DNA from: an uncultured delta proteobacterium
Lineage (GTDB): Bacteria > Desulfobacterota > Binatia > UBA9968
Direction of reading: 5' to 3'
DNA: 64,000 nucleotides
Assembly (NCBI GenBank): GCA_963847445.1
Contig: CAWJZV010000024.1
Span: 160,001-224,000, forward strand
A program made the position numbers and the translations under genes. Positions 2,529 to 63,171 of the stretch are shown in pieces; positions within the stretch are counted from its first letter, which is position 1, and every line of letters begins with the position of its first letter. The notes under the pieces are model-generated. The model saw only the letters and a program-made list of their open reading frames with translations. It ran no database searches and was not told the origin of the DNA.

Positions 2529-3881
2529 TTAACCTCGGAGAATCTCCGTCAGCGATCTGACATTATCGACTTTTTCCAAACCCTCGATCAGCGCCAATGC
2601 GCGCTCAGCCGCGTCGGCGCTCAAGGTTTCGCGCGCGCACTCGGTAAACTTGCCTCTCAGCTCCGCTTCCGTCATGGGAAATTCCGGACTGCCTTTGGAG
2701 TGCTGTGCCTCGCGAATATAGGTCTGACCGCTTTTCGTGCGCAACGTCACCCGGCAGGGGCGGCCGCTCGGGTCGGTCTTTTTTAGATCATTGCCAAGAT
2801 GCATCTGCACTCTTTCCGCCAGTTTCAACACATTCGGTTCGCGCACGGCGGCGTCGGTGAATGCATGCAACGAAACCTTGCCGTCGATCAGCGCCCGCGC
2901 CACCAGATACGGCATGCAAAACTTGCCCTGGATGCTGGTTTGCGGCACTTTGAAAACGATGCGCTCGAAGGTGTGTTTGGCGACGTCGACATCGACGCTC
3001 TCGACCATCTCCGCAGTCAAGCCGTGTTTGGCTCTGAATTCCAATATCGAATCGATCGCCTGATGCGTAAGCCCGCCGCAAGGATAAGGCTTGATGCGAA
3101 TGCCGTCGCTGAGCAGCGCATAGGACCGGCCCAACTCTTCTATGGGCTTCTCGTCGATCGGCGCACCGGAATGAAGCACTTTGTAGAAGCCAAACCCCGA
3201 TTCGATCGCTTTACCGTTGGCGGTGAAGCCGGATTGCGCCAGCTTGGCCGCGAGCACGCCGTTGCGCGCGCCGAGGCCGACATGCAACGGCTTGGTCATG
3301 GTGCCAAAGTTGGCAACCACACCGCCGGCCATCGATGCCGACATGCCGAGCGCCATCTCAACTTGGCCGGCGTTGAGCCCGAGCAGCTTGCCGCATGCCG
3401 CCGCGGCGCCAAAGGAACCCAGCGTGCTCGGCGCGTGCCAACCGTCATGCTCGCTGTCGCGCAACGAGTGCACGAGCTTTGCCGTGACCTCATAGCCAAC
3501 CGCATAGGCTTCGATGATTTGCCGGCCGCTGGCGCCGAGCGCTTCTCCCAGCGCAAAGGTGGCGGGAATGATCGGCGCCGTCGGCTGGCCCATCAGGGTG
3601 AAGCTGTGATCGAAATCCATCGCGTGCGCCGCCGTGCCGTTCGCCAGCGCCGCGTTGAGCGCGGAAGATTTGAATCCTTGACCGATGACCGTGGTTTCTT
3701 CCTTGGCCTGTTCCTGGCGCGCGACCTCGGCGCAAATTTTCGCGTCCTCTTCCTTGCTGCCGGCAAGCGCCACACCGAGGCAATCGCGCACAGCGATCTT
3801 AGCGGTGGCAATCGCCGCCGCCGGTAGATTTTCATATTTCGCAGTCGCGACGAACTGCGCGATCTTTGCGGTTACGTCCAT
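2529..3881 (-). CDS. MmgE/PrpD family protein
   Basis: Motifs AALANGTAAHAMDFD, IKPYPCG..TH and KGSPEFPMT..KF. Confidence 0.9.
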   Translation of the reverse strand: MDVTAKIAQFVATAKYENLPAAAIATAKIAVRDCLGVALAGSKEEDAKICAEVARQEQAKEETTVIGQGFKSSALNAALANGTAAHAMDFDHSFTLMGQPTAPIIPATFALGEALGASGRQIIEAYAVGYEVTAKLVHSLRDSEHDGWHAPSTLGSFGAAAACGKLLGLNAGQVEMALGMSASMAGGVVANFGTMTKPLHVGLGARNGVLAAKLAQSGFTANGKAIESGFGFYKVLHSGAPIDEKPIEELGRSYALLSDGIRIKPYPCGGLTHQAIDSILEFRAKHGLTAEMVESVDVDVAKHTFERIVFKVPQTSIQGKFCMPYLVARALIDGKVSLHAFTDAAVREPNVLKLAERVQMHLGNDLKKTDPSGRPCRVTLRTKSGQTYIREAQHSKGSPEFPMTEAELRGKFTECARETLSADAAERALALIEGLEKVDNVRSLTEILRG

Positions 3882-7242: not shown

Positions 7243-7369
7243 ATTCGCATCCTTTAATAACTCCTGACTAACCGCGGCAATGCGGTTCGAACACGAGCAC
7301 GTCGTCAAAGCCGACCATTGACATCGTCGGCACCGCCATTTAACAATCCGCGCGAACAAAGGAGAGCTT

Positions 7370-7858
7370 ATGCCTAAAGTCACATCCCTCGGACATCTGG
7401 GTTTTCATGTGCGCGATATGGAACGCTCGGTGGCGTTCTACCGCGACATTCTCGGTTTAACCGTCAGCGACCGCAGCCCGCGCGGCGCCGTGTTCATGAC
7501 CAGCCAGGATCGCAGCGTCGAGCACCACGAGCTCTACCTGGCGCCGGGGCGCGACGACGACGGCAAGGTCAACGTCTTGCAGCAGATTTCCTTCCGCTGT
7601 CCGACGTTGAAGGATGTCAAGGATTTCTATCAACTATTCGTCGACAAGCAGGTGCCGATCAACCGCTGCGTCAGTCATGGCAACACCGTCAGCATCTACG
7701 CCAGCGACCCCGACGGCAACTCGGTGGAAGTCTACTGGCCGAGCGGCGTCGACGTGCCGCAACCCTTCGGCAAACCGATGGACTTGACCAAGAGCGAAGT
7801 GGAAATCCGCGAACAGCTCAATCAGATCCTTAGAGAATGGCAGAGCCAGGCGTCATAA
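7370..7858 (+). CDS. VOC/glyoxalase family protein
   Basis: LGHLGFHVRDMERSVAFYRDILGL..SIYASDPDGNSVEVY; RBS AGGAG. Confidence 0.9.
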   Translation: MPKVTSLGHLGFHVRDMERSVAFYRDILGLTVSDRSPRGAVFMTSQDRSVEHHELYLAPGRDDDGKVNVLQQISFRCPTLKDVKDFYQLFVDKQVPINRCVSHGNTVSIYASDPDGNSVEVYWPSGVDVPQPFGKPMDLTKSEVEIREQLNQILREWQSQAS

Positions 7859-7915
7859 AAACCGTTTTCAATAATCATTGACCATCGGCGAGCCCAGGAG
7901 GCATTGGAGTTGTCT

Positions 7916-8485
7916 ATGCCACGTATTCCCTATGTCGACCCGGATAAAGTTACCGACCCAGAGATCAAAGGCTATCTGGAGCGCGCTCGCCGTGAAGGCA
8001 CGCCGCGCCCTGAAAGCCAGGCCGTGCGCGCCAACGTCCCCGAGGTCATCCGCGCGTTCTCGCAGGCGTGGGAACTCACGTTCCGCACCGGCGTCGTCGA
8101 CCACGCGCTCAAAGAGCTTTGCCGGGTTTACGTTTCGAAATCGATTGACTGTCAATATTGAGGCGTGCAGCGCTCCGTCCAGGCTGGACGGCAAGGACTT
8201 ATTGAAGCGAAGTACGATGAGTTGCTCAACTTTGCCGACTCGGACAAATTCACCGAGCGAGAAAAAGTCGCGCTAACCTACACCAGCGCGATCGCCTGGA
8301 ACTCAGACATCGCCGACGACGCGCTCTGGGCAAAATTGCACCGACATTTTTCGATCCCAGAGTTGGTCGAGCTCGGTTTTTTCATCGGCCTCACCCTCGG
8401 CCAACAGCGCTGGATCAAAACCCTCGGCATCGACCATGGCGCCGTGCTCGGCGATACCACAGCCGGTCTCGCGCCAACGAAATAA
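7916..8485 (+). CDS. AhpD/carboxymuconolactone decarboxylase-like protein with CxxU motif (in-frame UGA at 8159-8161, probable selenocysteine)
   Basis: ORFs 7904..8161 and 8165..8485 are in the same frame and interrupted only by one TGA: LKELCRVYVSKSIDCQY-UGA-GVQRS..FTEREKVALTY..LHRHFSIPELVEL. The TGA is the second Cys of the AhpD-like CxxC. Confidence 0.88.
8175..8191 (+). promoter_or_regulatory. Putative bacterial SECIS hairpin (CCGUCCA-GGC-UGGACGG)
   Basis: Perfect 7-bp stem starting 13 nt after the in-frame UGA; G-containing loop 20 nt downstream. Confidence 0.75.
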
Positions 8486-8588
8486 GCGGAGAAAACATTC
8501 ATCTCGCCACGAATTGTCCAAGAACTGGCGCTCGCCTATAGAGCATGAAATTGGTTCGCAGTCCCTGAACATGCTCCCCTCCTCGATT

Positions 8589-8724
8589 CGTCATTCCCGC
8601 GCATGCCTGTCCTGAGCAAAGCCGAAGGGCGGGAATCCAGGTGACGGACAGAGTCCGTCATACCGTTGAAAAACGGTATCCAGGGGGATGATGAGTCTGG
8701 ATACCCGCTTTCGCGGGTATGACG
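8589..8724. repeat. Cluster of three CGTC-type REP palindromes (8589-8640, 8656-8683, 8697-8724 inverted); the first carries a cctgtcctgagc..cgaaggg insert
   Basis: cgtcattcccgc..gcgggaatccag, cgtcataccgttgaaaaacggtatccag, ctggatacccgctttcgcgggtatgacg. Confidence 0.8.
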
Positions 8725-8774
8725 AAACCCGGGAGGCTCTTCGTTGTGCATATCATCCCCTCACATGTATTTTC

Positions 8775-9116
8775 GAAGGAGGACACGAAGGCGTCGGATA
8801 ACTAATATTTCGAACTTCGTGATCTTCGTACTACTATACTTGAAAGTTTGCGCGGCTCGCGCAAATTTTCGGTCATTGGGGATACTCGTACTGGGGAATT
8901 GACTCTCGCAAAGACGCAAACCTCGCCAAGTTCGGAAGGAAGATATGAATTAGCTTGAAGAATTTAGTCACCGTTATTTTTCGACCTTTGCGACCTTTTG
9001 CGTCTTTGCGAGAGATATTCCGAGTTTCGATTGCGGCTGTGCCGCGCTAGGCCCTTCGTGGTGAACACTTTATTTCTTATTTGGTTGCGGCTTCGCCACA
9101 CTGGGCTCGTCGTGGC
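8775..9116. repeat. cacgaag/cttcgtg palindrome carrying a 221-bp cassette (8830-9050) plus an extra cassette-end copy
   Basis: Homology to 2208-2419 and 39604-39821. Confidence 0.85.
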
Positions 9117-9138
9117 GCACAACACAATCTGTTTCTGA

Positions 9139-10803
9139 CTAATTCCCGCCAAGCGCCGCGACTTCTTCGACGGCAAAAACCGCCAGCGCTTCGCGCCGGT
9201 TGCGCACGGTGAGTTCGTGGCGCGGCAGGCTGGCCGTGTTCAACCCCGACTGCTTGGCGACTTCTGCCGAGATCACCAACTGACAGTGAAACTCCTTGGT
9301 CGCATCTTGCAGCCGGCTGGCGACGTTGACCGTATCACCGATAGCGGTGACGTGGATCGTGTCGCCGTAGCCCATGCGCCCTACCACCGCCGGCCCGCAG
9401 TGAATGCCGATGCCGATGCGCAGTGGCGCGCTGAGTTCTTCTGCGAGTGCTCCGCTGAGTTCGTCGACCCGCTCAATCATCGCCTGGGCAGCGGCAAGCG
9501 CTTGGCGGCAGCCTTCTTCGGGTCCGCTTTCGACGCCGAACAGCGCCATCACGCCGTCACCGACGAATTTGTCGATCATGCCGCCGCTCGAGACGATCGC
9601 CGCACCGACGGCGGCGAAATAGCTGTTCAAGAAAAATACTAAATCGTAGGGCAGCTTGGTTTCGGCGATGCCGGTGAACGAGCGGATATCGGCGAACATT
9701 ACCGCGATCATGCGTTCCTGGCCGGCGAGGTAAGCCGGTTGGCCATAACCCTCGCTCGCCTGAGCATGCGGCGGCAGGAGCGGCGTCACCGTGAGATTAT
9801 TCGTCGGCCGCAGCTGGCAGGCCAGTCTAACATCGGGCGCGGCGCCGACGCGCCGCAATACCTTCAACTCGCCGGCAGCCGGCGGCGGCAAATTCGCTGC
9901 GCCAAGAGTGACCCGCACTCGGCAGGTTGAGCAGCGCCCGCGGCCGCCGCAAACCGAAGCATGGGGAATCGCCGCTAAACGGCTCGCTTCGAGGACGGAG
10001 AAATTGCGCGGCGCCTGCACCTCCCGGCCATTGGGATACGTAATGCGGATGCGGCTGCGCCGCTCGACCAAACTTCGCGCATACCCGCGCTAGCAGCGCC
10101 AAGACAATCGCCGCGCCGAAAGTGATCAGCACGCCGTCATAGATCTGGTACAACACCGCTCGCTGGCTGCGCGGCGGCACTTTCGCAGCCACGAGGAAAC
10201 GCTCGAGCCATTCCGGCTGGCGCGCGATCAGGTTGGACACTTCCCGACCGGCACCGACGAAACCCAACAGCCCGCACACTGGGATAAGCAACGCCAGAGG
10301 CGAGCAGGTATGGCGCGATGCGCGGATACCATTTCTTCAATCGCAGCCAATAGTGGCAGCCGATACAGCCATGGGTCCAGGCGATGACAATCAGGATCGC
10401 CTGCTTCAATCCATCCATCGGCGCAGCATGCCAGAGGGTCAAAACCATCAAAGTGTAGGAATCGTCGACGCCAAAAAATTCATGGTTGAGCCGGGTGCCG
10501 ACGATATGGATCGTCAGCAACAGCGGAATGGTCAAACCGAATAACAGTTGCAGCATCTCGGCCACCGGCATGCGCCAATGGCGCCGCTGGTACAGCGCCC
10601 AGATCGCCAAACCCAAGTGGGTCAATAACGCGCTGTAAAGCATCGCCGTGCCGACCGGATTGCGCCACAAGCAGCAAAAACCACCACCGCCCCCACTCCA
10701 TCGCCGCCAGCGAAATCAAGCCGAGCGCATGATTGAGCAAGTGCGTCGACAAATAGGTGAGCAGAATTAGCCCCGTAACCAAACGTGTGCGCCGAACGTT
10801 CAT
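9139..10803 (-). CDS. Membrane-bound class III adenylate/guanylate cyclase with 2Fe-2S ferredoxin domain (CyaC-like); 2-3 frameshifts
   Basis: His-containing TM helices (THLLNHALGL, THLGL, HIVGTR, WTHGCIG), ferredoxin CGGRGRCSTC..RLACQ, cyclase FADIRSFT..DKFVGDG..IGDTVNVASRL. Confidence 0.85.
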
Positions 10804-11031
10804 GATTGCGCGCCAATCTACTACGACCGCGCCACCGCCGTCTATGCAACAACGCTGCAAGCCGAACAAGGTTATGATCCGAATTCCCGACGCCTCACCC
10901 CTTACCCCCCAGGCCTAGCTCCCATAGCCTTCCTCCTGTTGACTCCCTCCGCCAACTCGGCCTATTTATGGACGGTCAAGTTTTTCACCGCGTGCCGGAA
11001 CCGGCACGGGCTATTCGAAAGGAGCCAAATC

Positions 11032-12165
11032 ATGAGAGATGGATTTAAAATCATCGACGCCGACCGCCATGTGCTCGAGCCGTCGGATCTGTTCGCCAAA
11101 TATTTACCGGAAAAATTTCGCAGCCGGGTCGACATCCAGGGACCCAACCAGTCCTATCGTAGAGTAGACGGCGCGTTAATTTCCGACGCCGATCGGTTGC
11201 GCGACGCGACTAAACAAGAAGACTTCGGCTTTACCTTCGCCGCCTCGAAAAAATGGCGCGAGACCTTCGCCGATGCATTGGCGGCGAAATTCGACACCGC
11301 GTCCAACGTCCGCGACATGGACAAAGAAGGCGTCGACATCGGCGTCCTCTTCCCCACCGTCGGCCTGTACATCATGTGGCGTGACAATTTGGATCCCGAA
11401 CTCTCTGCCGCCATCTGCCGCGCCTATAACACCTGGATGTCGGACTATTGCAGCGCCAGCAACAAGCGCCTCTACGGCGTCGCCTTGATACCGCTACAAG
11501 ATCCGGTCCGCGCGGTGGAAGAATTGCAGCACGCCAAAAAGCTCGGCCTGGTCGGCATCTTCTGGCGGCCTAACAAAATCTGCGGCCGCACCCTATCGAG
11601 CCCCGACTACGATCCGATCTATGCGACCGCCGCCGACCTCGGCATGACCGTCTGCGTCCACGAAGGCGCGCGCACCGTGCTGGCGCAAGCCGGCTCGGAC
11701 CGCTACAGCGAGTTCGGCCGCCATGTCGCCTGCCATCCCTTGGAGCAGATGCTCGCCTGCTTGAATCTCTGCGCCGACGGCGTGCTGGAAAAATTTCCCA
11801 AGCTCAAGGTCGCCCATCTGGAATCGGGCTGCGGCTGGGTGCCGTTCTGGTTGGAGCGCATGGACGAGCATTGGGAACATGCCGGCCATGGCCAAGCCAA
11901 GACGACCAAAGAAAAACCGAGCTTCTACTTCAAGCGCCAATGCTGGACCAGCGCCGAAGCCGGCGAAGAGTTGGCGCCGGTTTTTGTCGAGCATGTCGGC
12001 GAGGATTACTTAATGGTCGCCACCGACTATCCGCACAGCGACTGCATCGGCAAATTCCCCGATCGCACCGTCGGCGATCTCACCACCAACAATCATCTCT
12101 CACAAGAAGCGCGCCGGAAAATTTTATGGGACAATCCGAAGCGCTTTTACGGACTGGAGGTTTGA
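11032..12165 (+). CDS. Amidohydrolase family protein (amidohydrolase_2)
   Basis: IIDADRHVLEP, VCVHEG, LESGCGWVPF, ATDYPHSD. Confidence 0.9.
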   Translation: MRDGFKIIDADRHVLEPSDLFAKYLPEKFRSRVDIQGPNQSYRRVDGALISDADRLRDATKQEDFGFTFAASKKWRETFADALAAKFDTASNVRDMDKEGVDIGVLFPTVGLYIMWRDNLDPELSAAICRAYNTWMSDYCSASNKRLYGVALIPLQDPVRAVEELQHAKKLGLVGIFWRPNKICGRTLSSPDYDPIYATAADLGMTVCVHEGARTVLAQAGSDRYSEFGRHVACHPLEQMLACLNLCADGVLEKFPKLKVAHLESGCGWVPFWLERMDEHWEHAGHGQAKTTKEKPSFYFKRQCWTSAEAGEELAPVFVEHVGEDYLMVATDYPHSDCIGKFPDRTVGDLTTNNHLSQEARRKILWDNPKRFYGLEV

Positions 12166-23541: not shown

Positions 23542-23666
23542 GTTTGACATCTTGGCTTGGGTTTCGTAGGGAAAGGGAAGTTGTCGACAACCTTCGGGCC
23601 TTGATGTGGATCGACTTAATCAAAAGGAAGACAAATACAACCTAGATCGAAAGCGAGGGTAATCTC

Positions 23667-24725
23667 ATGAACGCACCCGTATCCGCATACACCCCTGAAG
23701 TGGTATTGGCCGGCGAGAAGATTATTTCCGCCGACTCCCATATCAAGGAGCCGGAAGATCTGTGGGTCAATCAACTGCCGGCGTCGATGAAAGATCGCTA
23801 TCCAAAATTTCCCAAGCGCAATTCGCCCGGCGAAAAACCCGGCGGCTGGGACCCCAAGGCGCGCATTAGCGAGATGGAAACCGACGGCGTGTCGGCCGAA
23901 GTGCTCTATCCGACGCTGGGGCTGCGTTTGTTCGCCATGGAAGACGCCGAATGTCAGGAAGCCTGCTTCCAGATCGCCAACGATTGGATGATCGACTACT
24001 GCAAAGTCACCCCGGGCCGATTGATCGGCATCCCGATGATTTCGCTCTACAACATCAAGAACGCGATCAAGGAGCTCGAGCGTTGCAAGAAGGCCGGCAT
24101 GGTCGGCTGCTTGATCTGGCAAGTACCGCCGGACCATCTGCCGTTCTCCAGCGACTACTACGATCCGTTCTGGGAAGCCGCAGGCGAGATGAATATGCCG
24201 GTGAACTTGCATATCCTCACCGGATTCAACTACAGCCGCTTCGAGCGCAAAGGACTCGACACCTACAAGACCGCCGTCAACGATAAGGTCAACGACGCGG
24301 CGAATACGTTATTCGATCTGATCTTCACCGGCGCGCTGTCGCGTTTCCCCAAACTCAAACTGGTCTACGTCGAAAATGAGTGCGCCTGGCTGCCCTTCTA
24401 CTCCCACGAGTGGGACAAATACTACACCCGCTTCAAAACCAAAGTGCCGCTGCCGTTCATGAAGAAACTCCCCGGCGAATATATCGACGAACAAGTGTAC
24501 GCGACCTTTTTTAGCGACCCTTGCGGCGGCCAGCTGATGAATCGTTTCGGCCAAGACACGTTCATGTGGTCCAACGACTACCCGCACGCCGCCTCGCCGT
24601 GGCCGCACTCACGCAAAGTGATCGCCGAAGAATTAGGCCACCTGCCTAAAGACGTGCTGCGCAAAGTCGTGCGCGAGAACGTCATCAAGCTCTACGACTT
24701 GAAGATCGACGGGATCAACAATTGA
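23667..24725 (+). CDS. Amidohydrolase family protein (amidohydrolase_2)
   Basis: ISADSHIKEPEDLW, NLHILTG, WSNDYPH. Confidence 0.9.
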   Translation: MNAPVSAYTPEVVLAGEKIISADSHIKEPEDLWVNQLPASMKDRYPKFPKRNSPGEKPGGWDPKARISEMETDGVSAEVLYPTLGLRLFAMEDAECQEACFQIANDWMIDYCKVTPGRLIGIPMISLYNIKNAIKELERCKKAGMVGCLIWQVPPDHLPFSSDYYDPFWEAAGEMNMPVNLHILTGFNYSRFERKGLDTYKTAVNDKVNDAANTLFDLIFTGALSRFPKLKLVYVENECAWLPFYSHEWDKYYTRFKTKVPLPFMKKLPGEYIDEQVYATFFSDPCGGQLMNRFGQDTFMWSNDYPHAASPWPHSRKVIAEELGHLPKDVLRKVVRENVIKLYDLKIDGINN

Positions 24726-24744
24726 CCATTGATGATCCATGTGG

Positions 24745-24822
24745 TGTCATCCCGAACGAATGTGAGGGATCTAGATTCCCGCGGAGTCTATCATGAGCGC
24801 TGCCGCTGCGCTCGAAATGACA
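24745..24822. repeat. TGTCAT...ATGACA palindromic repeat (REP-like)
   Basis: tgtcatcccgaacgaatgtgagggatct-agattcc...cgctcgaaatgaca with inverted ends. Confidence 0.7.
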
Positions 24823-24842
24823 AAATAACACGGAGAAACGCC

Positions 24843-25337
24843 ATGCAGAAAAGCGCCACCGCCGCGGTTTATAAGAACTACGATCAACCGAAAACCCAGC
24901 TCTTTTCGCTCAAGACGCCGTACATGGAACAAGGCCGAGTAACCCAGCTTGTCGCCGAGACACCGAACCTGTGGATTCACACCAAGGTCAACGCCGAAGG
25001 CGGCGAGAACGAAATCCACAAGCATTTGGGCGAAGACCACGCCTTCATCGTTCTGGAAGGACAGATGAGCGTCTTCGATGAACAGGGCGGCGAGATCGAA
25101 GTGAAGCAGTATCAGGGCGTGATGATTCCCAAAGGCGCTTACTATCGCTATTTGAACACCGGCGACGGCAACCTGGTGGTGATCCGCGTCGGCGCCGGCG
25201 TAAAGGGACAACAGCAGGCGGGTCAGGAAACGCGCCTCGGCGCCGACGGCAAACCACTGGTCAGCGGCACACCGGAGAACCGCAACAAACCGCCCATCGA
25301 GATGATCGGCAAGTTTTTCGCCGAAGCCGCGGGTTAA
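24843..25337 (+). CDS. Cupin domain protein
   Basis: ENEIHKHLGEDHAFIVLEG..IPKGAYYRYLN. Confidence 0.85.
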   Translation: MQKSATAAVYKNYDQPKTQLFSLKTPYMEQGRVTQLVAETPNLWIHTKVNAEGGENEIHKHLGEDHAFIVLEGQMSVFDEQGGEIEVKQYQGVMIPKGAYYRYLNTGDGNLVVIRVGAGVKGQQQAGQETRLGADGKPLVSGTPENRNKPPIEMIGKFFAEAAG

Positions 25338-33206: not shown

Positions 33207-34638
33207 TTGAACACGCCCCTCAGCCAAGAGCAAAAGATTATCCACTTTCTAAACCGCACGAGCTTCGGGCCAACTCAAGTGGAAATCCAAAGAGCCGGCC
33301 GCATCGGCACCCGCGCCTATCTTGACGAACAGCTCACGCCGGAACGGATTGCGGACAATGGCGTCGACGAAAAAATCGCGGGGTTGAAAACCATGCGGCT
33401 TAACAGCCGCGAGCTGATCGAACTCTATCCACCGCCAAGACTACAAAGACAGCAAGCCAACCAGCAGGGCGGCATGGCCATGGAGTCCATGGACGGCCCG
33501 CGCGTCGTCATCCTCGAACTGCAACAGGCCAAGCTTTTGCGCGCGCTCTACAGCAACCGTCAGCTCTACGAAGTCATGGTGGATTTCTGGGGCAATCATT
33601 TCAACATCAATATCGCCAAGGGCGCCAACCGCTGGCTGACCACTGCCTACGATCGCGACACGATCAGGCCGTTGGCTCTAGGCAAATTTAAGGATTTGTT
33701 GATGGCGACGGCAAAAAGCCCGGCGATGCTTTTTTATTTGGACAACTGGATGAGCGCCAGCCCGGATTCGCCCGGCGCCAAAATGGGCGGGCCGAACAAT
33801 CGGCGCCGCGGCTTGAACGAAAACTACGCCCGCGAGCTCATGGAATTGCATACTCTCGGCGTCGACGGCGGTTACACGCCAAAAAGATGTTCAGGAGGTC
33901 GCCCGCTGCTTCACCGGCTGGACGATCGTCCAGCCGCAGGGCCAGGGCGTGTTTCGTTTCGAGCCGCGCATTCATGACAACGGCGAAAAGACCGTCCTCG
34001 GCCAGCGCATTCCGCGCGGCGGCGGCATGGACGATGGTCTGCGCGTCATTGATATACTAGTCAAGCATCCGTCAACGGCGCACGTTCATCGCGACCAAGT
34101 TGGTCCGCCGCTTCATCGCCGACGACCCGCCGCGCGGCGATGGTCAACAAAGCCGCCGAAGCGTTTCGCCAGAGCGACGGCGATATTCCGACGGTAATGC
34201 GCGCCATCGTCGACGCGCCGGAGTTTTTCGCCGGCGAGCTCTATCAGGCCAAGATTAAAAATCCCTTCGAGTTCGTCGCCAGCGCCCTGCGGGTCACCGG
34301 CAGCGACGCCCAGGTGACGCACCAACTGTTGCGTTACTTGGGTCGCATGGGCGAACCGCTATTCCTGGCCCAAGCGCCCACCGGCTATCCCGACATCGCG
34401 GCTTCTTGGATCAGCGCCGATATGTTGCTGACGCGGATGAACTTCGTCGCCGATCTGGTCGCCAACCGTTTGCCGGGAGCCAAAGTGCCGGTAGAAACGT
34501 TGAAGAATCGCGACGGGCTCGATCCGCCGCATCGCGCCGGACTCGCTATCGCCGGCAACCCAAGCCGCCCTGGCGGAAACCGAGGGCAATCAAGCCATCG
34601 CGCTGCTGTTAGCGGCGCCGGAATTTCAAAGGAGATAG
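33207..34638 (+). CDS. DUF1800 family protein (about three frameshifts)
   Basis: HFLNRTSFGP, QLYEVMVDFWGNHFN, SPAMLFYLDN, NENYARELMELHTLGV, C-terminal APEFQRR*. Confidence 0.88.
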
Positions 34639-34640
34639 AA

Positions 34641-35858
34641 ATGAACTCCTCGCGCCGCCGATTTTTACAGTCCACCGGTTTGGGATTTCTCGCCCTGGGC
34701 TTGCCGCCAGCGTTTCTCGTGCGCATTGCGCAAGCACAAGCGGCAAAGAACAAATCTCTCGTCGTGGTGTTTCAACGCGGCGCCATGGATGGCTTGAACG
34801 TGGTCATTCCGTTCAAGGATCCGGCCTATTACCAACTGCGCCCGAACATCGCTGTGGCTGAGCCGGGAATGGGCGAAGAACGGGCCATCGATCTCGATGG
34901 CTTTTACGCGCTCCATCCGGCGTTGGCGCCGCTCAAGAGCATCTACGACAAAGGTCATCTGGGTTTTATTCAGGCAACCGGTTCGCCCGATAACACGCGT
35001 TCCCATTTCGACGCCCAGGACTACATGGAAATCGGCACGCCGGGCATTAAAAGCACGCCGGACGGCTGGCTCAACCGCTGTTTGCTGGAAAACAAGAAAA
35101 GTGAATCGCACTTTCGCGGCGTCGCCGTCACCGCGCAACTGCCGCGCATGTTGGCCGGCCGCGCACCGGCGCTTACGCTGTCGTCCATTGAGGAGTTTCG
35201 CTTCCGCAATCAAGCCTTGGGCACGGCTTTGCAGAAGCTCTACGCCAACACCCGGGACAGCGAACTCCGCTTCGGCGCCGAGAGTCTCTTTGGCGCGATG
35301 ACCGAGCTCAAACGACTCGATGCCAAAATCCCGCTCTCGGCGGAACGTTACCCGGCGGGTCGATTTGGCACAGGTCTGGCGCAGATCGCCCGCTTGATCA
35401 AAGCCGATGTCGGTTTGGAACTCGCTTTCACCGAAATCGGCGGCTGGGACACCCACGCCAACGAAGGTGGCGCCACCGGCCAGCTGGCCAACCGGCTGAA
35501 AGAATTGGGTGAAGCACTTGCGGCGTTTTACCGCGACCTCGGCGACCGGATGGACGATGTCGTCCTGCTGACGATGTCCGAGTTCGGCCGCACCGCGCGG
35601 GAAAATGGCAATCGCGGCACCGACCACGGCCACGCCAACGTCATGTTCGCCATCGGTGGCAAAGTGCGCGGCGGCAAAGTCTACGGCCGTTGGCCCGGCC
35701 TGGCGCCGGAAATGCTTAATGAAGGCAGAGACCTCGCTCTAACCACGGACTTCCGCACGGTCTGCGGCGAAGTGCTGACACGCCATCTTGGCCAGAAAGA
35801 CATGAGCAAAATCTTCCCAGGTTTTAGCGCGAGCGCAAAATTGGGACTACTAACTTAG
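34641..35858 (+). CDS. DUF1501 family protein (Tat signal)
   Basis: SRRRFLQ, VVFQRGAMDGLN, RSHFDAQ, GGWDTH, SEFGRT..N..GTDHG. Confidence 0.92.
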   Translation: MNSSRRRFLQSTGLGFLALGLPPAFLVRIAQAQAAKNKSLVVVFQRGAMDGLNVVIPFKDPAYYQLRPNIAVAEPGMGEERAIDLDGFYALHPALAPLKSIYDKGHLGFIQATGSPDNTRSHFDAQDYMEIGTPGIKSTPDGWLNRCLLENKKSESHFRGVAVTAQLPRMLAGRAPALTLSSIEEFRFRNQALGTALQKLYANTRDSELRFGAESLFGAMTELKRLDAKIPLSAERYPAGRFGTGLAQIARLIKADVGLELAFTEIGGWDTHANEGGATGQLANRLKELGEALAAFYRDLGDRMDDVVLLTMSEFGRTARENGNRGTDHGHANVMFAIGGKVRGGKVYGRWPGLAPEMLNEGRDLALTTDFRTVCGEVLTRHLGQKDMSKIFPGFSASAKLGLLT

Positions 35859-43094: not shown

Positions 43095-43918
43095 CTACCC
43101 GAGCAGAACCGTGCCGTGAAACACTTCCGTCGCCCCGCCGGTCATATAGACGCGATTGTTGTCGCGCCACTCAATCACCAGATCGCCGCCCTTGAGATGG
43201 ACCGTGACTTTCCGTTCGGTGCGGCCGGTGATGACGCCGGCAACGCCGACGGCGCTGGCGCCGGTGCCGCAGGCCCAGGTTTCGTCCGGCACCGCGCTCC
43301 CAGGTCCGCATGGCGCACTTCCGTCGGACTGAGGATCTTGATGAACTCGGTGTTCACCCGTTTGGGGAAAAACCGATGATGCTCGAAATCGGGGCCGATC
43401 TTTTGCAGATCCAAGGAATCGATATCGTCGAGATAAATCACCGAGTGGGGATTGCCCATCGACACGCAGGTGATTTCGTAAGTTTTACCCTGCACCGTGA
43501 GCGGACGATTTTTGATCTCGCCGTCGGCATCGACAGGAATTTTGCGTCCTTCGAGAATCGGTTCGCCCATGTCGACCTCGACCAGATCGCCGACGATCTT
43601 CGGCCGGATGATGCCGGCTAAAGTCTCCACTTCGAGAGCGCGTTTCTGCGTGATGCCATGATCATAGACATACTTGGCGAAGCAGCGGATGCCGTTGCCG
43701 CACATCTCCACCTGGCTGCCGTCGGCGTTGTAGATCTCCATTTTGAAGTCGGCGACTGTCGAGGGATGAACCGTCAGCAACTGATCCGCGCCGATGCCAA
43801 AGCGGCGGTCGCAGAGCTGCGTGGCCACGGCTTCGAGGTTCTCGATGTTGTTCTTCAAACAATCGAGAAAGACGAAATCGTTGCCCGCCCCATGCATCTT
43901 GGTAAATTGCAGTTCCAT
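43095..43918 (-). CDS. dapF: Diaminopimelate epimerase (frameshift)
   Basis: [32 protein letters not shown]. Confidence 0.95.
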
Positions 43919-43939
43919 GTTTGCTTTGAACCTTCGGAC

Positions 43940-43962
43940 GGGCGTATGCAATACGCCCCTAC
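43940..43962 (-). repeat. GTAG-type REP hairpin
   Basis: gggcgtatgcaatacgcccctac between lysA and dapF. Confidence 0.75.
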
Positions 43963-43974
43963 CAGCCATTTCTC

Positions 43975-45254
43975 TTATTGCAGCGCCGGCGGTATCACTT
44001 CGCCGTTGATCAGATCGTCGAGGCTCTCGCGCTTGCGCACGACGTAATACTTGATCGCCGTCGACCAGGATCTCGGGCGGCTTGGGATGCGAATTGTAGT
44101 TCGACGCCATGGTAAAGCCGTAGGCGCCGGCGCTCATCACCGCCAGTAAATCGCCGCGTTTGGGCCGGGCAATCTCGCGATCCTTGGCGAAGAAATCGCC
44201 GCTTTCGCAAATCGGCCCGACGACGTCGGCGTTGATCGTTTCCGCCTTGCGTCTCGAACCACCGGCCGAATCGCCTGATAGGAACCGTAGAGCGCCGGCC
44301 GGATCAAATCGTTCATGCCGCCGTCGACGATGACGAACTTCTTCGTGTCGGTTTCTTTGATGTACTGCACTTCGGTCAGAAGAATGCCGGCGTTGCCGAC
44401 GATCACCCGGCCCGGTTCGAGGATCAGCGTGACGTCCGAGCCCTTCCAAGCCTTGGATGATCGCCTTGGCATAGTCATTCGGGCAGCGGCGGATTCTCGT
44501 CGTTATAGTTGATACCCAAACCGCCGCCCAAGATCGAGATAGCGAATTTGCGCGCCTTCTTTTCTCATCTCACCGAGCAGCACCCGGTCGAGATACTCGC
44601 GCAACTTGGCGAGAGCATCGACGAACGGCGTCAAGCGACGTCAGCTGGGAGCCAATATGGCAGTCGACACCGACGACTTCGAGGTTTTTAAGCGATACCG
44701 CCTTTTTATAGGTTTCGACCGAGCGCTTGATGTCGACGCCGAACTTGGCCTTTTTCATGCCGGTGGAAATATAGGGATGGGTCTGCGGATCGACATCGGG
44801 ATTGACGCGCAGACTGATCGGCGCTTTCTTGCCGATGCCGGCGGCGATCTCGTTTAACGCGGTCAACTCCTCTTCGGACTCGACGTTGAACATCAAGATG
44901 CCGGAGTTGAGCGCGTACTCGACTTCGTCCTTCTTTTTGCCGACGCCGGAAAAAACGATCCGCTTGGGATCGGCGCCGACTTTCAGGGCGCGAAAGAGTT
45001 CGCCGCCCGAGACGATATCGAAACCGCTGCCCTGCTTGGCGAAGCGGCGCAGCAGCGCCAGATTGGAATTGGCTTTCACCGAAAAGCAAACGATATGCGG
45101 CACCTTGGCAAAGGCTTGGTCGAAGACGCTGTAGTGGCGCTGTCAACGTCGCCAGACTATAAACATAGGCCGGCGTGCCGACTTCCTGAGCGATGCGCTT
45201 GAGCGCAACGTCCTCCGCAAACATTTCACCGTTGCGATATTCAAAATGATTCAT
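43975..45254 (-). CDS. lysA: Diaminopimelate decarboxylase (several frameshifts)
   Basis: [49 protein letters not shown]. Confidence 0.93.
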
Positions 45255-47104: not shown

Positions 47105-47177
47105 ATGGCAATGCAAATTGATAATTGAAAACGATCGGATCCGGACATTATCAATTTTCCATTTTGCATTTTCAATT
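47105..47177. repeat. AT-rich inverted ~7-nt repeat (aattgataattgaaa...ttttgcattttcaatt)
   Basis: Direct reading, between argG and argH. Confidence 0.55.
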
Positions 47178-48377
47178 TATTTTGCCTTCGCTAGTTTACG
47201 CAGCCGCAGCCGCAACGCATTCAATCGAATAAACCCCTCGGCGTCGGCTTGGCGGTAAACCTGATCGGCCTCGAACGTCGCCACGTTGGTATCGTAGAGC
47301 GAGGCGTCGGACTTGCGGCCGACCACCATGACGTTGCCTTTGTATAATTTCACGCGCACCCGGCCGGTGACGTTGGCCTGGGCGGCGTCGATGGTTTTTT
47401 GCAGCACTTCGCGCTCCGGCGCGAACCAGTAGCCGTAGTAGATCATCTCGGCGTAGCGCGGGATCAGCGAATCGCGCAAGCGCAGCACCTCGCGGTCCAT
47501 GGTAATCGACTCGATGCCGCGATGCGCTCCATGGAGAATCGTGCCGCCGGGAGTTTCATAAACACCGCGCGACTTCATGCCGACATAGCGGTTCTCGACC
47601 ACGTCGACCCGGCCGATGCCATGCTTGGCGCCGATGTCGTTCAAGCGCGCCAACAGATTCGCCGGCGAGAGCTTTTTGCCGTTCACTGCCACCGGATCGC
47701 CGCGCAGATAATCGATCTCGATGTATTCGGCGCGGTTGGGCGCCTTCTCCACCGGCCGGCACCAGACGAACATATCCGCCGGCGGCTTCTTTCCACGGAT
47801 CCTCGAGAACGCCGCCTTCATAACTGATGTGAAACAAGTTGCGATCGGTGCTGTAAGGTTTGGCCTTGGTGACCGGCACCGGGATGCCATGCTTGCGCGC
47901 ATAGTCGATCAAGGTCGAGCGCGCATTTAAATTCCACTCGCGCCAGGGAGCGATGACTTTGATGCCCGGCTTGAGCGCATAGTAAGTGAGCTCGAAGCGC
48001 ACCTGATCGTTGCCCTTGCCGGTGGCGCCATGGGAAACCGCGTCGGCTTTTTCACGCACGGCGACGTCGATCTGCCCTTTGGCAATCAACGGCCGGGCGA
48101 TGGAGGTGCCGAGCAAATAGGAACCTTCGTAAACCGCGTTGGCGCGCAGCATCGGGAAGACGTAATTTTTAACGAACTCTTCGCGCAGATCGCCGATCAC
48201 GACTTTGCTCGCGCCGGTCTGCATCGCCTTTTTCTTGACCGCCTGGAGATCTTCGCCCTGGCCCAGGTCGGCGCAGAAGGCGATGACTTCGCAGCCGTAT
48301 TCTTCTTTGAGCCAGCGTAAAATAACCGACGTATCCAAACCGCCGGAATAAGCCAACACCACTTTCTTAACGTTCAT
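47177..48377 (-). CDS. argG: Argininosuccinate synthase (one frameshift near 47790)
   Basis: [34 protein letters not shown]. Confidence 0.96.
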
Positions 48378-48411
48378 TTGGATTTCTTCGAACCTCTGCT
48401 TCCGGTTGTCT

Positions 48412-49387
48412 TCATTGAACCTTGAACCTTGCTTCGATAAACTCAGGCCCTGAGCTGTCGAAGGAACCTTTGAACCCTTTTAGCAGCCAGACCATCACCG
48501 CTTTTTGCGCATGCAGGCGATTCTCCGCTTGATCGAAGGCGACGCACTGTGGGCTTTCCAGCACTTCGTGGGTGATCTCCTCGCCGCGGTGCGCCGGCAG
48601 GCAATGCATGACCACCGCATCCGGTTTCGCCATCGCGACCACCTGGCTATTGACCTGGTAGGCGCGAAACGCTCGCAGGCGGTTTTGCACCTCTTTTTCC
48701 TGGCCCATGCTGGTCCAGACATCGGTATAGATGGCGTCGGCACCCGCCACCGCCTCTTTGACCGATTGAGTGATCGTGATCTTCGCCCCTTGGTCTGCGC
48801 GCCTTCTGCAAAATCGCGGCGTCAGGCTCGTAACCCTTGGGACAGGCCAGGGCGAACGCAAACGGTAAGATGGCGGCGGCTTCCAACCAGGAATGAACCA
48901 TGTTGTTGCCGTCGCCGACGAAAGCGATCTTCAGACCGTCGAGCGTGCCCTTATGCTCGATCAACGTTTGGCAGTCGGCGAGCACCTGGCACGGATGGTA
49001 ACCATCGGTGAGCGCGTTGATCACCGGCACCGCGGCATATTCGGCCAACTCTTCGATGATCTTGTGGCCAAACGTGCGCACCGTGATCAGATCGAACCAG
49101 CGGTCGAGATTGCGCGCGCAGTCCGCCGGGGTTTCCCGCGTGCCTAAGCCAACCTCGGCGGGTCCCAAGTAAACCGCGCTGCCGCCCAACTGGATCATGC
49201 CGACGTCAAAGGTCGCGCGCGTGCGCAGACTCGGCTTCTCAAACACCATTGCCAGCTGCTTGCCGGCCAACAGTCGATGCGGGATACCGCGCTGCTGTTT
49301 GCGCTTGAGCTCAGCAGCAAGTCGCAATATGCCGTCGAACTCCCGGCGGCTCATGCCGGCGAAATTGAGCAGATCGCGTTTGTTCAT
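48412..49387 (-). CDS. argF: Ornithine carbamoyltransferase (frameshift near 48795)
   Basis: [41 protein letters not shown]. Confidence 0.95.
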
Positions 49388-55634: not shown

Positions 55635-56046
55635 ATGAAAACAAAACTACCGATTGTCGTTCGAGTCGCCGCTACTGGCGTTGTTCCTGACCGCCGCCTG
55701 CGGCCATGATTTGAACACCGCGCAGGGCGTCGCCCAAGAGTTTGTCGATCATCACTATGTCAAGATCGACTTGCAGAAGGCCAAGCAGTACACGGTGAGC
55801 GTCGCCCAGGCCAAGATCGACGAAGAGATCCGCTTGACCAGCGGGCAGACGATCGACGCCTCGACGCAAAAACCGCGGGTAAATTACACGCTGTTGGATA
55901 AGCACGAAGGCGAGCAGCGGTCGACCTATCTATTCGAAGGCAAGATTCAATCCGACGACGGCACGTCGTTTACCCGCAAGTGGTCCATCGCCACGCGCAA
56001 GGAAGGCAATGGCTGGCGGGTTTCAAACTTCACGGAATCGGACTAA
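55635..56046 (+). CDS. Putative lipoprotein (frameshift in the signal region)
   Basis: Lipobox LTAAC; alpha/beta body ending WRVSNF. Confidence 0.6.
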
Positions 56047-56089
56047 CCGGAGAATTCAGCCGCACCTCTTGACGGTGCTTAGGACGATC

Positions 56090-56250
56090 GGGCCGCAAAA
56101 AACGCAAAAATTCAAAGAAGCAATCCGAACGTAGGGGCGTATGGCATACGCCCGGCGTGGTGGAGTGGCAATCGCGTGGCCACAAAATTGGCGCAGGCGG
56201 CCGAAATGACAGCAAATCCGAACTTGGCGTCTTCGCGCCTTGGCGGGAGA
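56090..56250. repeat. Composite repeat: cgcaaa repeats, GTAG REP (56131-56153) and cttggcg repeats
   Basis: gtaggggcgtatggcatacgccc; homologous to 5187-5290. Confidence 0.78.
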
Positions 56251-56292
56251 AACTTTTTTTCTCCCACACGAAACCACGGGCTACCGCCGCAT

Positions 56293-57617
56293 CTACGCTC
56301 CGGCCGGCTGCGCGCCCACCGGTGGCGGCGCAGCTTACAGTGGGCTTGGATTTGATCTGCAGTGCCAATCCGGCGGCGATCATTGCGATAAACCCGCCCG
56401 CCATGAATGCCACGTTATACTCGCCGAGATAGTCGCGCACCGCGCCGGCCGCCGACGCCATGATCGCGGCGCCGATCTGATGGGACATAAAAATCCAGCC
56501 GTATACTTTGCCGACATTTTGCCGGCCGAAGGTATCGGCGGTGATCGCCATCGACGGCGGCACGGTGGCGAACCAGTCCAGTCCGTAAATAATCGCGAAG
56601 ATGACCAAGCCGGTAAAGCTCGTGACGAAGGGCAAAATCAATAGCGACAGGCCGCGCAAGCGCGTAAACCAGCGCCAACCATTTATGCGGCGATACCTTA
56701 TCGACCATCCAGCCGGAAAAGGTCGTGCCGACGATGTTGAGCGTGCCCATGATGCCGACCAAAGACGCGGCGGCGATCTGCGGGATGCCGATCTCGATTT
56801 CATGAGGGATCAAATGCGTGCCGATCAATCCATTGGCCGTGCCGCCGCAAACAAAGAAAGTGCCGCACAGCAGCCAAAAGGTCGGGTGGGTGACGACTTC
56901 GCGCGCCGTGATCGTGGCATTCTTCGAGGACATGCCGCGCAGCGAGGCCGCGCCACCGCCGACATTGGTCTGTCCGGCGCCGTAGGGCTCCAAGCCGACA
57001 TCGGCCGGATCGTCGCGCATGAAGAGATACAGCAGCGGCAACAAAAGGATCGCGAGAATGATCAAAACCGTCGAACCGATGCGCCATCCGGAGTTGGCGA
57101 TCATCCACATGAAGAACGGCAGAAATATCAGTTGACCCGTCGAACTGGCGCTGCCGAGAATTCCCAGCGCCAGTCCGCGCCGCGCGACAAACCAGCGATT
57201 TCCCACGGTGGCGGTCAACACCGAGCCGACGCCGCCCGCGCCCAGACCTACGATGACGCCCCAAACCAAGAAAAAATGCCAGAACTCGGTCATGCCAACC
57301 GTGCCGCTGACCCCGGTGATCAACAGAATCAGGCTGCCAAGCATGACCTTGCGCGGCCCGAAGCGGTCGATCAGCCAGCCACTGATCGGCGCGGCCACGC
57401 CGAAGAGCAGCAGATTCATGCTGATCCCCGAAGCGATCAGCGCCCGGCTCCAGCCGAACTCCAGCTGCAATGGAAGAATCAAGACTTGCGGCGACGAGCG
57501 CACGCCAGCGCTCGTTAGCGTGGTCAAAAAACACAACGAGACAATGAACCAACCATAGTAAAAAGGCAGAGAGATCGGCGGACGCTTCTTGGGAGTGCCA
57601 GGGCTGTCGTGTTCCAT
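56293..57617 (-). CDS. MFS transporter (frameshifts near the C-terminus)
   Basis: FYYGWFIV, GWLIDRFGPRKV, NRWFVARRGLALG, ATVPP. Confidence 0.9.
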
Positions 57618-57776
57618 CCCTTCATATAGACTGAATTCGGCGCCAATCACAAACAGGATTGTCCCAGCTAGGCGAGAAGCCAAAGCGAGTGAATTGACAG
57701 CCCGGAGCGCGATCAGATAGTTATTGCCAATGCGCCCGGTTATTCAATCGCGCTATGAAAGGAACCAAGTAGCTGA

Positions 57777-61975: not shown

Positions 61976-63171
61976 TCAATCTCTTGCCAGTACCAGCGTC
62001 ACGTTGGCGCCGCCAAAAGCGAACGAGTTGCTCACCGCCCAGCGCGGCGGATGTCCTAGTCTGGTCGTCGGCGTGGCCAATTGCAACACCGGTAATTTGG
62101 GATCGTCGATGCCATCCCATAAATGTGCCGGCAGCTTGCCGGTCGGATTGTCGTCCTGCATCGCCAGCCAGCACAGTCCCGCTTCGATCGCCCCCGCCGC
62201 CCCCAGGGCATGGCCGGTAAAGGGTTTGGTCGAGCTGACGAAAACATGATGACCGCCGAACACCCGATGGATTAACTCAGCTTCCATGGCATCGTTCTGC
62301 ACCGTGGCGGTGCCATGTAAATTGACATATTCGATCTCCGCCGACGTTACCGCGGCGCGCGCCAAAGCCTGTTCTAGCGCCAAGCGCCCGCCGACGCCAG
62401 CGGGATCTGGCGCCGACATATGGTAGCCGTCGGACGACTCGCCCCAACCGCGCAGGCTCACCGTTGCCGGTTCGCGGCTGACGAGAAATAACGCCGCGCC
62501 CTCGCCGATGTTGATGCCGTCGCGATTGCGGCTGAGCGGATTACAGCGCGTCAGTGCTGAGCGATTCAAGGGCGGCGAAGCCGGCCACCGTGAAGCGGCA
62601 CAAAGTGTCAACGCCGCCGGCCAGCACGGCGTCGCAAAGCGTTCATGCGGATCAGCCGCGCCGCGCTGGCCAGCGCCTTGGCGCTCGACGCGCAGGCGCT
62701 GGAGTGGACATAGGCCGGTCCGCAAATACCCAGCTCCCTCGCCAAGACCGTAGCCGGTGAAGCCAACTCTTGCTGGCCATAGTGAAATCCTTCCGGCAAC
62801 GCCCCCGTCGAGACATAATCACGCAGCGCGGCTTCCGCTTCGGCGACGCCGGAGGTGCTGGTGCCGATGACGACACCGACGCGTGCGTCGCCATAGCGTT
62901 CGATCGCACTTTCCACGGCCGGACGGATTTGCTCCAAAGCGGCGAGAGCGATCTGATTATTGCGGCTACGGTCAGGCAAGGGCCATTCATCCATCGGCGG
63001 CAATGGCAAATTGCCATCGATCCGGCCAAGCGGCAATGGCCGTCCCGGTGAATAGCCATCGGACAACGCCACGCCACTCCGCGCCAGTTCCAACAGCGCG
63101 CGCTTGGTTGCGTCGAGGCTATTGCCGAGCGGGCTAATCATGCCCAGCTGGTTGAGATAAATCATGCTCAT
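61976..63171 (-). CDS. Beta-ketoacyl-ACP synthase (ApeO-like; frameshifts)
   Basis: SRNNQ, GTSTSG, SSACASSAKAL, NLHGTAT..ND, TGHALGAAG, SNSFAFGG. Confidence 0.9.

Follow-up and report, generated by a model that had tools for sequence, protein, structure and literature searches.

Does a TGA codon in the middle of an AhpD-like gene from an uncultured delta proteobacterium (Binatia) stop translation, or does it encode the selenocysteine (Sec) of a full-length enzyme? The gene lies at positions 7916-8485 of a stretch of 64,000 nucleotides from contig CAWJZV010000024.1 (assembly GCA_963847445.1, positions 160,001 to 224,000), hereafter called the window. The initial annotation, made from the letters of the window, had proposed that this locus encodes an AhpD/CMD-like selenoprotein with a CxxU motif, which is hidden because open reading frame (ORF) calling splits it in two. 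We propose, with a probability of about 0.88, that 7916-8485 on the forward strand is one gene encoding a 189-residue AhpD-like thiol/selenol oxidoreductase with a carboxymuconolactone decarboxylase (CMD) fold of the COG2128/YciW type, in which Sec takes the place of the second active-site Cys (C79-Q-Y-U82).

The reading frame runs from an ATG at 7916 to a TAA at 8483-8485, and its sole internal stop is the TGA at 8159-8161 (residue 82), which lies in the context S-I-D-C79-Q-Y-[TGA]-G-V-Q-R-S. Thirteen bases (8162-8174) separate this TGA from the sequence CCGTCCA-GGC-TGGACGG (8175-8191), which can fold into a perfect stem of 7 bp capped by a loop of 3 nt. ORF calling with translation table 11 yields two pieces, 7904..8161 (85 aa) and 8165..8485 (106 aa, GTG start). 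On these three points, namely, the single TGA in IDCQY-TGA-GVQR, the hairpin 13 nt after it, and the split ORF, the initial annotation proved exact. The N-terminus MPRIPYVDP agrees with that of full-length homologues in our protein alignment. The parts of the locus that matter for the argument, among them a candidate selenocysteine insertion sequence (SECIS), are as follows.

7916..8485, forward strand: predicted to encode the entire AhpD-like/CMD selenoprotein in 189 codons, with TGA-82 read through and TAA as the stop.
7896..7909, forward strand: putative purine-rich ribosome-binding region, with AGGAGG (7896-7901) and GGAG (7906-7909) 5' of the ATG at 7916.
8150..8152, forward strand: codon for Cys79, with which the C-x-Y-U redox motif begins, invariant in a 19-row alignment and nearly so in a 43-row alignment.
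8159..8161, forward strand: in-frame TGA at residue 82, probably read as Sec, invariant in a 66-row DNA alignment and replaced by TGC in 15 loci.
8175..8191, forward strand: SECIS-type hairpin with a stem of 7 bp (8175-8181/8185-8191) and the apical loop GGC (8182-8184).

We looked into the identity of codon 82 in other genomes. Scanning 185,579 species genomes yielded 565 relatives, of which we analyzed the best 80 loci (designated here by L-numbers). Codon 82 is TGA in 65 of these 80 loci, TGC in 15, and TGG in none, which is the alternation between Cys and UGA that the initial annotation had anticipated for this alignment column. The nearest relatives (96-97% identity) come from metagenome-assembled genomes (MAGs) labelled "uncultured delta proteobacterium" and Candidatus Binatia; the window gene shares this 96-97% identity with L001 and L002 over the best tblastn segment, and its protein is 98% identical to that of L002 in the alignment used for the tree. 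According to the submitters' own labels, TGA forms are present in MAGs of at least nine phyla, including Binatota, Rokuibacteriota, Pseudomonadota, Chloroflexota, Actinomycetota, and Dormiibacterota, and further labels are Burkholderiales, Ktedonobacterales, Acidimicrobiia, Thermoleophilaceae, Dormibacteraceae, Omnitrophota, and Sysuimicrobiota. The MAGs of this TGA clade originate from soil, groundwater, and sediment. A maximum-likelihood tree, built by a quick method with Shimodaira-Hasegawa-like approximate likelihood ratio test (SH-aLRT) support only and with the Sec rows gapped at the Sec/Cys column, requires at least three Sec/Cys changes, a figure that is only rough because the residues encoded by the hairpin were kept in the tree alignment. 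One Acidimicrobiia MAG (L058) carries both forms, a TGA-type copy at 6241 and a TGC-type paralogue (CGYCAAQRS) about 4 kb downstream, at about 10260.

Protein databases bear the trace of the same codon. A word-indexed search gave 5033 relatives, the best of which are 81% identical over their full length (~190 aa). Among the matches listed from 1.84 billion representatives, 16 terminate precisely at query residue 81 and 5 others start at residue 84, and all 16 of the fetched fragments ending at residue 81 have C-x-Y or C-x-F as their last residues; ORF callers thus split the gene in many data sets. In 42 aligned database homologues, column 82 is mostly C, with W in eight (P0002, P0004, P0005, P0007, P0008, P0012, P0024, and P0026), all of which are from short contigs and from a single source. 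Since TGG was found at none of the 80 loci, we infer that these W residues are TGA codons called under genetic code 4. A separate case is P0036, a close database homologue of 175 aa in which the segment from the CxYU motif to the residues encoded by the hairpin is absent (...SKSID|ELLDF...); either a natural deletion or an incorrect gene model may account for this gap.

The eight W residues could also be taken to indicate that these organisms read TGA as Trp or Gly throughout the genome, as in codes 4 and 25. Yet the taxa that carry the TGA forms use the standard code, and TGG never occurs at codon 82 in the 80 loci. TGA also serves as the terminal stop in 43 of the 65 Sec-type genes and in 12 of the 40 window ORFs supported by a Pfam domain, and therefore it is not reassigned throughout the genome. 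We give this explanation next to no credence.

If TGA keeps its role as a stop, it could simply be a true stop here, so that the locus would be a pseudogene, the product of a sequencing or assembly error, or the source of an 81-residue truncated peptide only. That the organism uses TGA as a stop speaks for this, and so do the many genes of the window broken by indels: overlapping ORFs make up each of argG, argF, and the genes for a DUF1800 protein, an MFS transporter, and a ketoacyl synthase, and dapF carries a fragment of lysA fused to it in frame (broken or fused spans 33207-35858, 43175-44449, 47177-48377, 48412-49387, 56030-57683, and 61976-63171). Such breaks are typical of indel errors in long-read assemblies. 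The errors elsewhere in the window are indels and not substitutions, as the initial annotation had stated and as the split genes bear out, and the AhpD-like gene is free of any such break. Moreover, the same TGA occupies the same codon in 65 independent assemblies and is therefore not noise, again in line with that earlier view.

We then examined the part of the gene that lies beyond the TGA, using the 65 TGA genes whose 3' half is intact. Nucleotide diversity at codon positions 1, 2, and 3 was 0.204, 0.124, and 0.510 upstream of the TGA and 0.193, 0.159, and 0.462 downstream of it, and the mean protein identity to the window gene was 75.6% before the TGA and 77.1% after it. The 107 downstream codons keep coding periodicity, are as conserved as the upstream part, and evolve as coding sequence in the same frame, which is not expected beyond a true stop. 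Together with the recurrence of the TGA, this makes the true-stop explanation highly improbable.

Translation of the downstream part could also be achieved if residues 1-81 and residues 84-189 were two polypeptides that assemble after translation, the second one starting at the GTG at 8165. In favor of this, the GTG occupies codon 84 and the downstream half is predicted as a gene by ORF callers. However, only 27 of the 66 TGA sequences (the window plus 65 loci) have a potential start at codon 84, and in 19 of the 66 the first 40 codons after the TGA contain none of ATG, GTG, and TTG in frame. The two-polypeptide reading fails because starts near codon 84 are missing from so many TGA sequences; in addition, no ribosome-binding motif precedes 8165, and the conserved hairpin would be left unexplained. 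We consider a split gene extremely unlikely.

The hairpin itself was evaluated first as a single sequence. Its loop lies 20 nt from the TGA, and its folding energy in isolation is -9.8 to -10.3 kcal/mol. A perfect 7-bp hairpin located 8-23 nt downstream of a TGA is found at 17 of the 1806 TGA triplets (0.9%) on both strands of the window; on its own, the hairpin of a single sequence speaks only weakly against chance. We nevertheless regard it as more than chance because comparative data across genomes show selection on it. In a gap-free alignment of 59 nt around the codon, comprising the window and the 65 TGA loci, the TGA is invariant, the first loop base is G in 66/66 sequences, and the second loop base is G or U. 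The RNAalifold consensus of the 66 sequences consists of precisely the 7 pairs of the window hairpin, and compensatory changes are seen at 4 of the 7: pair 24-38 is CG in 46 sequences, UA in 11, and GC in 9; pair 25-37 is GC in 54, GU in 8, CG in 3, and AU in 1; pair 26-36 is UA in 62, CG in 2, and UG in 2; and pair 29-33 is AU in 47, GC in 8, GU in 6, and unpaired in 5.

These counts exceed what the composition of the columns would give. In the 66 TGA sequences, 98.9% of the cells are paired, versus 90.8% in column shuffles, and 34 cells show changes on both sides, versus 6.2 in shuffles; neither value was reached in any of 500 shuffles. When the partners were slid by 1-3 columns as a control, only 17.6-44.2% of cells were paired. 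In the same columns of the 15 TGC genes, 27.6% of the cells are paired, which is not above shuffles. The UA variants of pair 24-38 are located in several separate branches of the tree and therefore do not derive from one inherited event. Furthermore, substitutions in the 3' arm are nonsynonymous and turn Arg into Gln, Ser, or Glu, whereas their partners in the 5' arm are silent changes of Ser codons, which points to a constraint at the RNA level. The RNA structure is thus, judging from this pattern of substitutions, under selection and tied to the UGA form of the gene.

We compared the element with the consensus model of the bacterial SECIS (bSECIS) as it is given in a figure legend (PMC13188914, Fig. 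2 legend), which specifies a loop of 3-9 nt, an upper stem of 4-16 bp, a G in the first two loop positions, a UGA-to-loop distance of 16-37 nt, and an energy of at most -7.5 kcal/mol. The window element lies within all four constraints (loop of 3 nt and stem of 7 bp, G first, 20 nt, and -9.8 kcal/mol). It differs from the model as described in that legend in that its loop size is at the lower limit and in that RNAalifold predicts neither a bulge nor a lower stem. With its dimensions inside these bounds, its compensatory changes, and its loss of pairing in the Cys forms, the hairpin behaves as a bacterial SECIS, which is what the initial annotation had taken it for.

We propose that a ribosome reaching the UGA at 8159-8161 would encounter the mRNA hairpin at 8175-8191, which presents its G-first 3-nt loop 20 nt downstream, and that SelB and tRNA(Sec) would read the UGA by SECIS-dependent insertion. 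Sec would be inserted at residue 82, and translation would continue to the TAA at 8483-8485. The product, which would contain selenium, would most likely cycle between a selenol/thiol form and a Cys79-Sec82 selenenylsulfide, and this cycle may reduce a peroxide, a sulfenic acid, or the disulfide of a partner protein.

The evidence at the RNA level would fit equally well if the UGA were decoded through SECIS and SelB with Cys, by a noncanonical UGA-reading tRNA-Cys acting either constitutively or under selenium scarcity. Cys is indeed functional at residue 82 in 15 of the 80 relatives. Yet there is no tRNA gene of any kind in the window, so nothing there points to a UGA-reading tRNA-Cys, and the retention of both the UGA and the hairpin in 65 genomes is hard to explain when TGC is one mutation away. 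We consider Cys insertion very unlikely and retain Sec as the residue that is probably inserted.

A number of observations weigh against the interpretation as a selenoprotein. The window belongs to an error-rich assembly. It contains none of selA, selB, selD, and a tRNA-Sec gene in its 64 kb, and ARAGORN detected no tRNA-Sec in the window or in the whole flanks of the 80 loci (60 + 20). A Pfam scan of 45 of the 111 cluster representatives of flanking ORFs, namely, the co-directional nearest-neighbor ORFs among the TGA loci, revealed neither Sec machinery nor a shared partner. Regarding the RNA, the 66-nt stretch folds at -19 kcal/mol with a z score of -0.83 relative to shuffles, which is not significant alone; the column-shuffle control ignores the relatedness among the 66 sequences; and an Rfam scan of 7300-9200 at E values up to 10 gave no SECIS family, the lone match that overlaps the hairpin being a chance-level ribozyme on the opposite strand. 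Regarding the protein, the score for the Pfam CMD domain (PF02627) is marginal (23.7 bits, cut-off of 23). The best NCBIfam match, NF053654 (E = 6e-15), reaches 55.5 bits, far below its cut-off of 310, and TIGR01926 ("peroxidase-related enzyme") reaches 24.9 bits, far below its cut-off of 81.8. Finally, the His that comes after CxxC in PA0269 (the His of CxxCxxxH) has Arg86 as its counterpart in the alignment. On the other side stand the Cys/UGA alternation, the conserved hairpin, and the existence of a known CxxU family, and with these the recoded selenoenzyme put forward by the initial annotation is supported.

In the window, 43 frames bounded by TAA or TAG contain 1-2 internal TGA codons. 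The other candidates with a TGA in the frame of a gene were rejected: they correspond to adjacent genes that share one frame (23646-25337), to the frameshift in argG (47196-48479), or to upstream extensions.

We then analyzed the protein. A profile of 43 homologues matches the PDB structures of PA0269/AhpD, Atu0492, and Bmp8, and most of the listed homologues carry a precomputed PF02627 assignment. The C-x-Y-C motif of the family aligns with CAYC of PA0269, and the TGA codon falls on the second Cys, that is, on a position of the redox pair. An AlphaFold model of the protein (predicted local distance difference test [pLDDT], 89.4; predicted template modeling [pTM] score, 0.85) was matched by Foldseek to 2prr, 6k40, 2oyo, 7xw1, and 6ohi at a probability of 1.00 and with template modeling (TM) scores of 0.61-0.77. 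The CMD match, the alignment with CAYC, and the fold of the model together argue for an AhpD-like, all-helical protein with a predicted redox pair at residues 79 and 82. Two features typify the clade in our alignment: Q85-R86-S87 is nearly invariant, and the N-terminal block G-T-P-R-P-E-S-Q is invariant.

The His of CxxCxxxH is the proton relay in AhpD, and AhpD-type chemistry is not assured here because this His is replaced by Arg. In AhpD from Mycobacterium tuberculosis, the nucleophilic attack is made by the second Cys of CxxC, and Sec at residue 82 would fit this role. Many homologues are named "alkylhydroperoxidase family enzyme" by one source, which we take to be COG2128's own name. The substitution of Arg for His and the scores below threshold for TIGR01926 and NF053654 indicate a separate family among the AhpD-like proteins.

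Proteins of known structure provide further comparisons. The Cys-type AhpD structures, PA0269/AhpD (2ijc, 2o4d, and 7xw1), Atu0492 (2gmy), and AhpD from Deinococcus radiodurans (6k40), and the Cys-type "peroxidase-related" structures (2prr, 2pfx, and 2oyo) represent this fold. The window protein has in common with these structures the all-helical fold (TM scores of 0.61-0.77) and a Glu 11 residues before the first Cys (E67...C79), and it differs from them by its predicted Sec in place of the second Cys, by Arg86, and by the GTPRPESQ block. The tetrabromopyrrole debrominase Bmp8 (6ohi and 6ohj), a member of the CMD family of similar length, was matched by the profile with an E value of 4.8e-10 and superimposes with TM scores of 0.71-0.74 over ~180 residues, but the identity is just 17-18%. 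Nothing in the gene neighborhood, either in the window or among the scanned flanking ORFs, suggests halogenated substrates, and we consider the likeness to Bmp8, as judged from the model, to be one of fold only.

AhpD-like selenoproteins with a CxxU motif have been known in print since 2005, so the kind of protein proposed here is already known. According to the excerpts of the respective papers, the Sargasso Sea data set yielded 27 sequences of an "AhpD-like protein" (COG2128, CxxU), reported there as a new family of selenoproteins (PMC1088965), and the AhpD-like family was the fourth most numerous one in the Global Ocean Sampling (GOS) data, with 299 Sec and 902 Cys sequences, next to a second family, "AhpD-like 2," under pfam02627 (PMC2398784). 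The excerpted parts of two reviews list the family as COG2128 (YciW)/TIGR01926 with CxxU (PMC9312934, PMC13188914), and in that of a database paper from 2026 the AhpD-like family serves as a browsing example (PMC13326102). The statement of the initial annotation that Sec-containing AhpD-like/CMD proteins with CxxU had been reported is thus borne out by these excerpts (PMC1088965, PMC2398784, PMC9312934).

As far as these partial texts describe them, the AhpD-like selenoproteins (COG2128/YciW) have in common with the window protein the CxxU motif with Sec for the second Cys, the AhpD/CMD fold with widespread homologues in Cys form, and a SECIS-like hairpin downstream of the UGA with a G in a small apical loop. 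They differ in that the review excerpt ties them to TIGR01926, whose cut-off the window protein misses, and in their origin: those described are marine metagenome reads, here compared by description, whereas the clade of the window comes from soil, groundwater, and sediment MAGs of Binatia, Rokuibacteriota, Ktedonobacterales, Acidimicrobiia, and others. The closest curated model is NF053654, "GroundWater_YciW" YciW-related (seleno)protein, a YciW-type family that, by its name, sometimes contains Sec; residues 1-158 of the window protein cover positions 1-157 of the 179-position profile. Judging from the profile scores, the window protein lies outside NF053654 and represents a sister family that has no model of its own in NCBIfam release 20.0. 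Our literature search did not find selenocysteine together with Binatia, and of two papers that combine Binatota with "seleno," one had its sole match in the reference list. The clade may already be catalogued in a selenoprotein database.

We also evaluated the genetic context of the gene, for which the initial annotation had proposed co-transcription with an upstream VOC gene.

7370..7858, forward strand: VOC/glyoxalase-fold gene (Pfam PF00903, 61 bits), a possible operon partner in this lineage only.

Co-transcription is plausible in the window because the VOC gene ends 57 nt before the ATG at 7916, with no terminator-like site between the two genes and with a promoter-like site at 7318-7347. 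It does not extend to the family, however, as a VOC gene lies directly upstream in just 5 of the 80 loci (L001, L002, L004, L007, and L008); an amidohydrolase gene is located between the VOC gene and the selenoprotein gene in L003, L005, L006, and L045. The 154 flanking ORFs of the 80 loci form 111 clusters; the neighbors are therefore not conserved, and the gene behaves as an independent unit.

Amidohydro_2 and MmgE/PrpD genes recur as neighbors within the Binatia-like loci only, where Amidohydro_2 is often directly upstream or MmgE/PrpD adjoins the gene (L003, L005, L006, L009, L045, and L017; L010, L012, L015, and L059). In the window, a PrpD-like gene is present nearby at 2529-3881 and an Amidohydro_2 gene at 10939-12165. 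A functional link to the Amidohydro_2 or MmgE/PrpD genes is possible. The product of the convergent downstream gene (9139-10071, reverse strand) combines a 2Fe-2S ferredoxin domain with an adenylate/guanylate cyclase domain in one fusion protein, and this gene adjoins the selenoprotein gene in the closest relatives too.

Compared with L001, the window has ~180 nt more spacer between the selenoprotein gene and the next gene. Positions 8903-8920 and 8997-9014 are 18-nt perfect inverted repeats (CTCTCGCAAAGACGCAAA), the arms of a palindromic intergenic element of ~110 nt that is present in three copies; the other two copies (2245-2260/2335-2350 and 39678-39693/39769-39784) were located with a 16-nt subpattern of the arm, which has 7 matches versus 0.12 expected. 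The element looks like a palindromic element of the repetitive extragenic palindrome (REP) or miniature inverted-repeat transposable element (MITE) type. An imperfect inverted repeat with 28-nt arms that are 79% complementary and 13 nt apart lies at 8656-8724 in the same low-GC spacer, and its Rfam matches were at chance level only.

What this locus adds is in the first place a correction to annotation, and it opens no new mechanism. Public gene calls are cut at residue 81/84 or carry a false Trp, and the catalytic residue is lost in most records because the gene is split or given a Trp and because no NCBIfam model reaches its cut-off. For the selenoprotein family, known mainly from marine reads, the gain is modest and consists of a Sec-dominant clade from soil and groundwater. 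At somewhat less than even odds, we suggest that this clade is a distinct Sec-dominant AhpD-like subfamily (Arg for His, GTPRPESQ, no curated model) that moves with its own SECIS among at least nine labelled phyla, and that it would be the first printed sign of Sec decoding in Binatia/Binatota and perhaps in Dormiibacterota and Ktedonobacterales. Its compact SECIS, with natural compensatory variants, is a possible test set for SECIS predictors. For the Binatia-like organism of the window, the gene would imply that Sec is among its traits.

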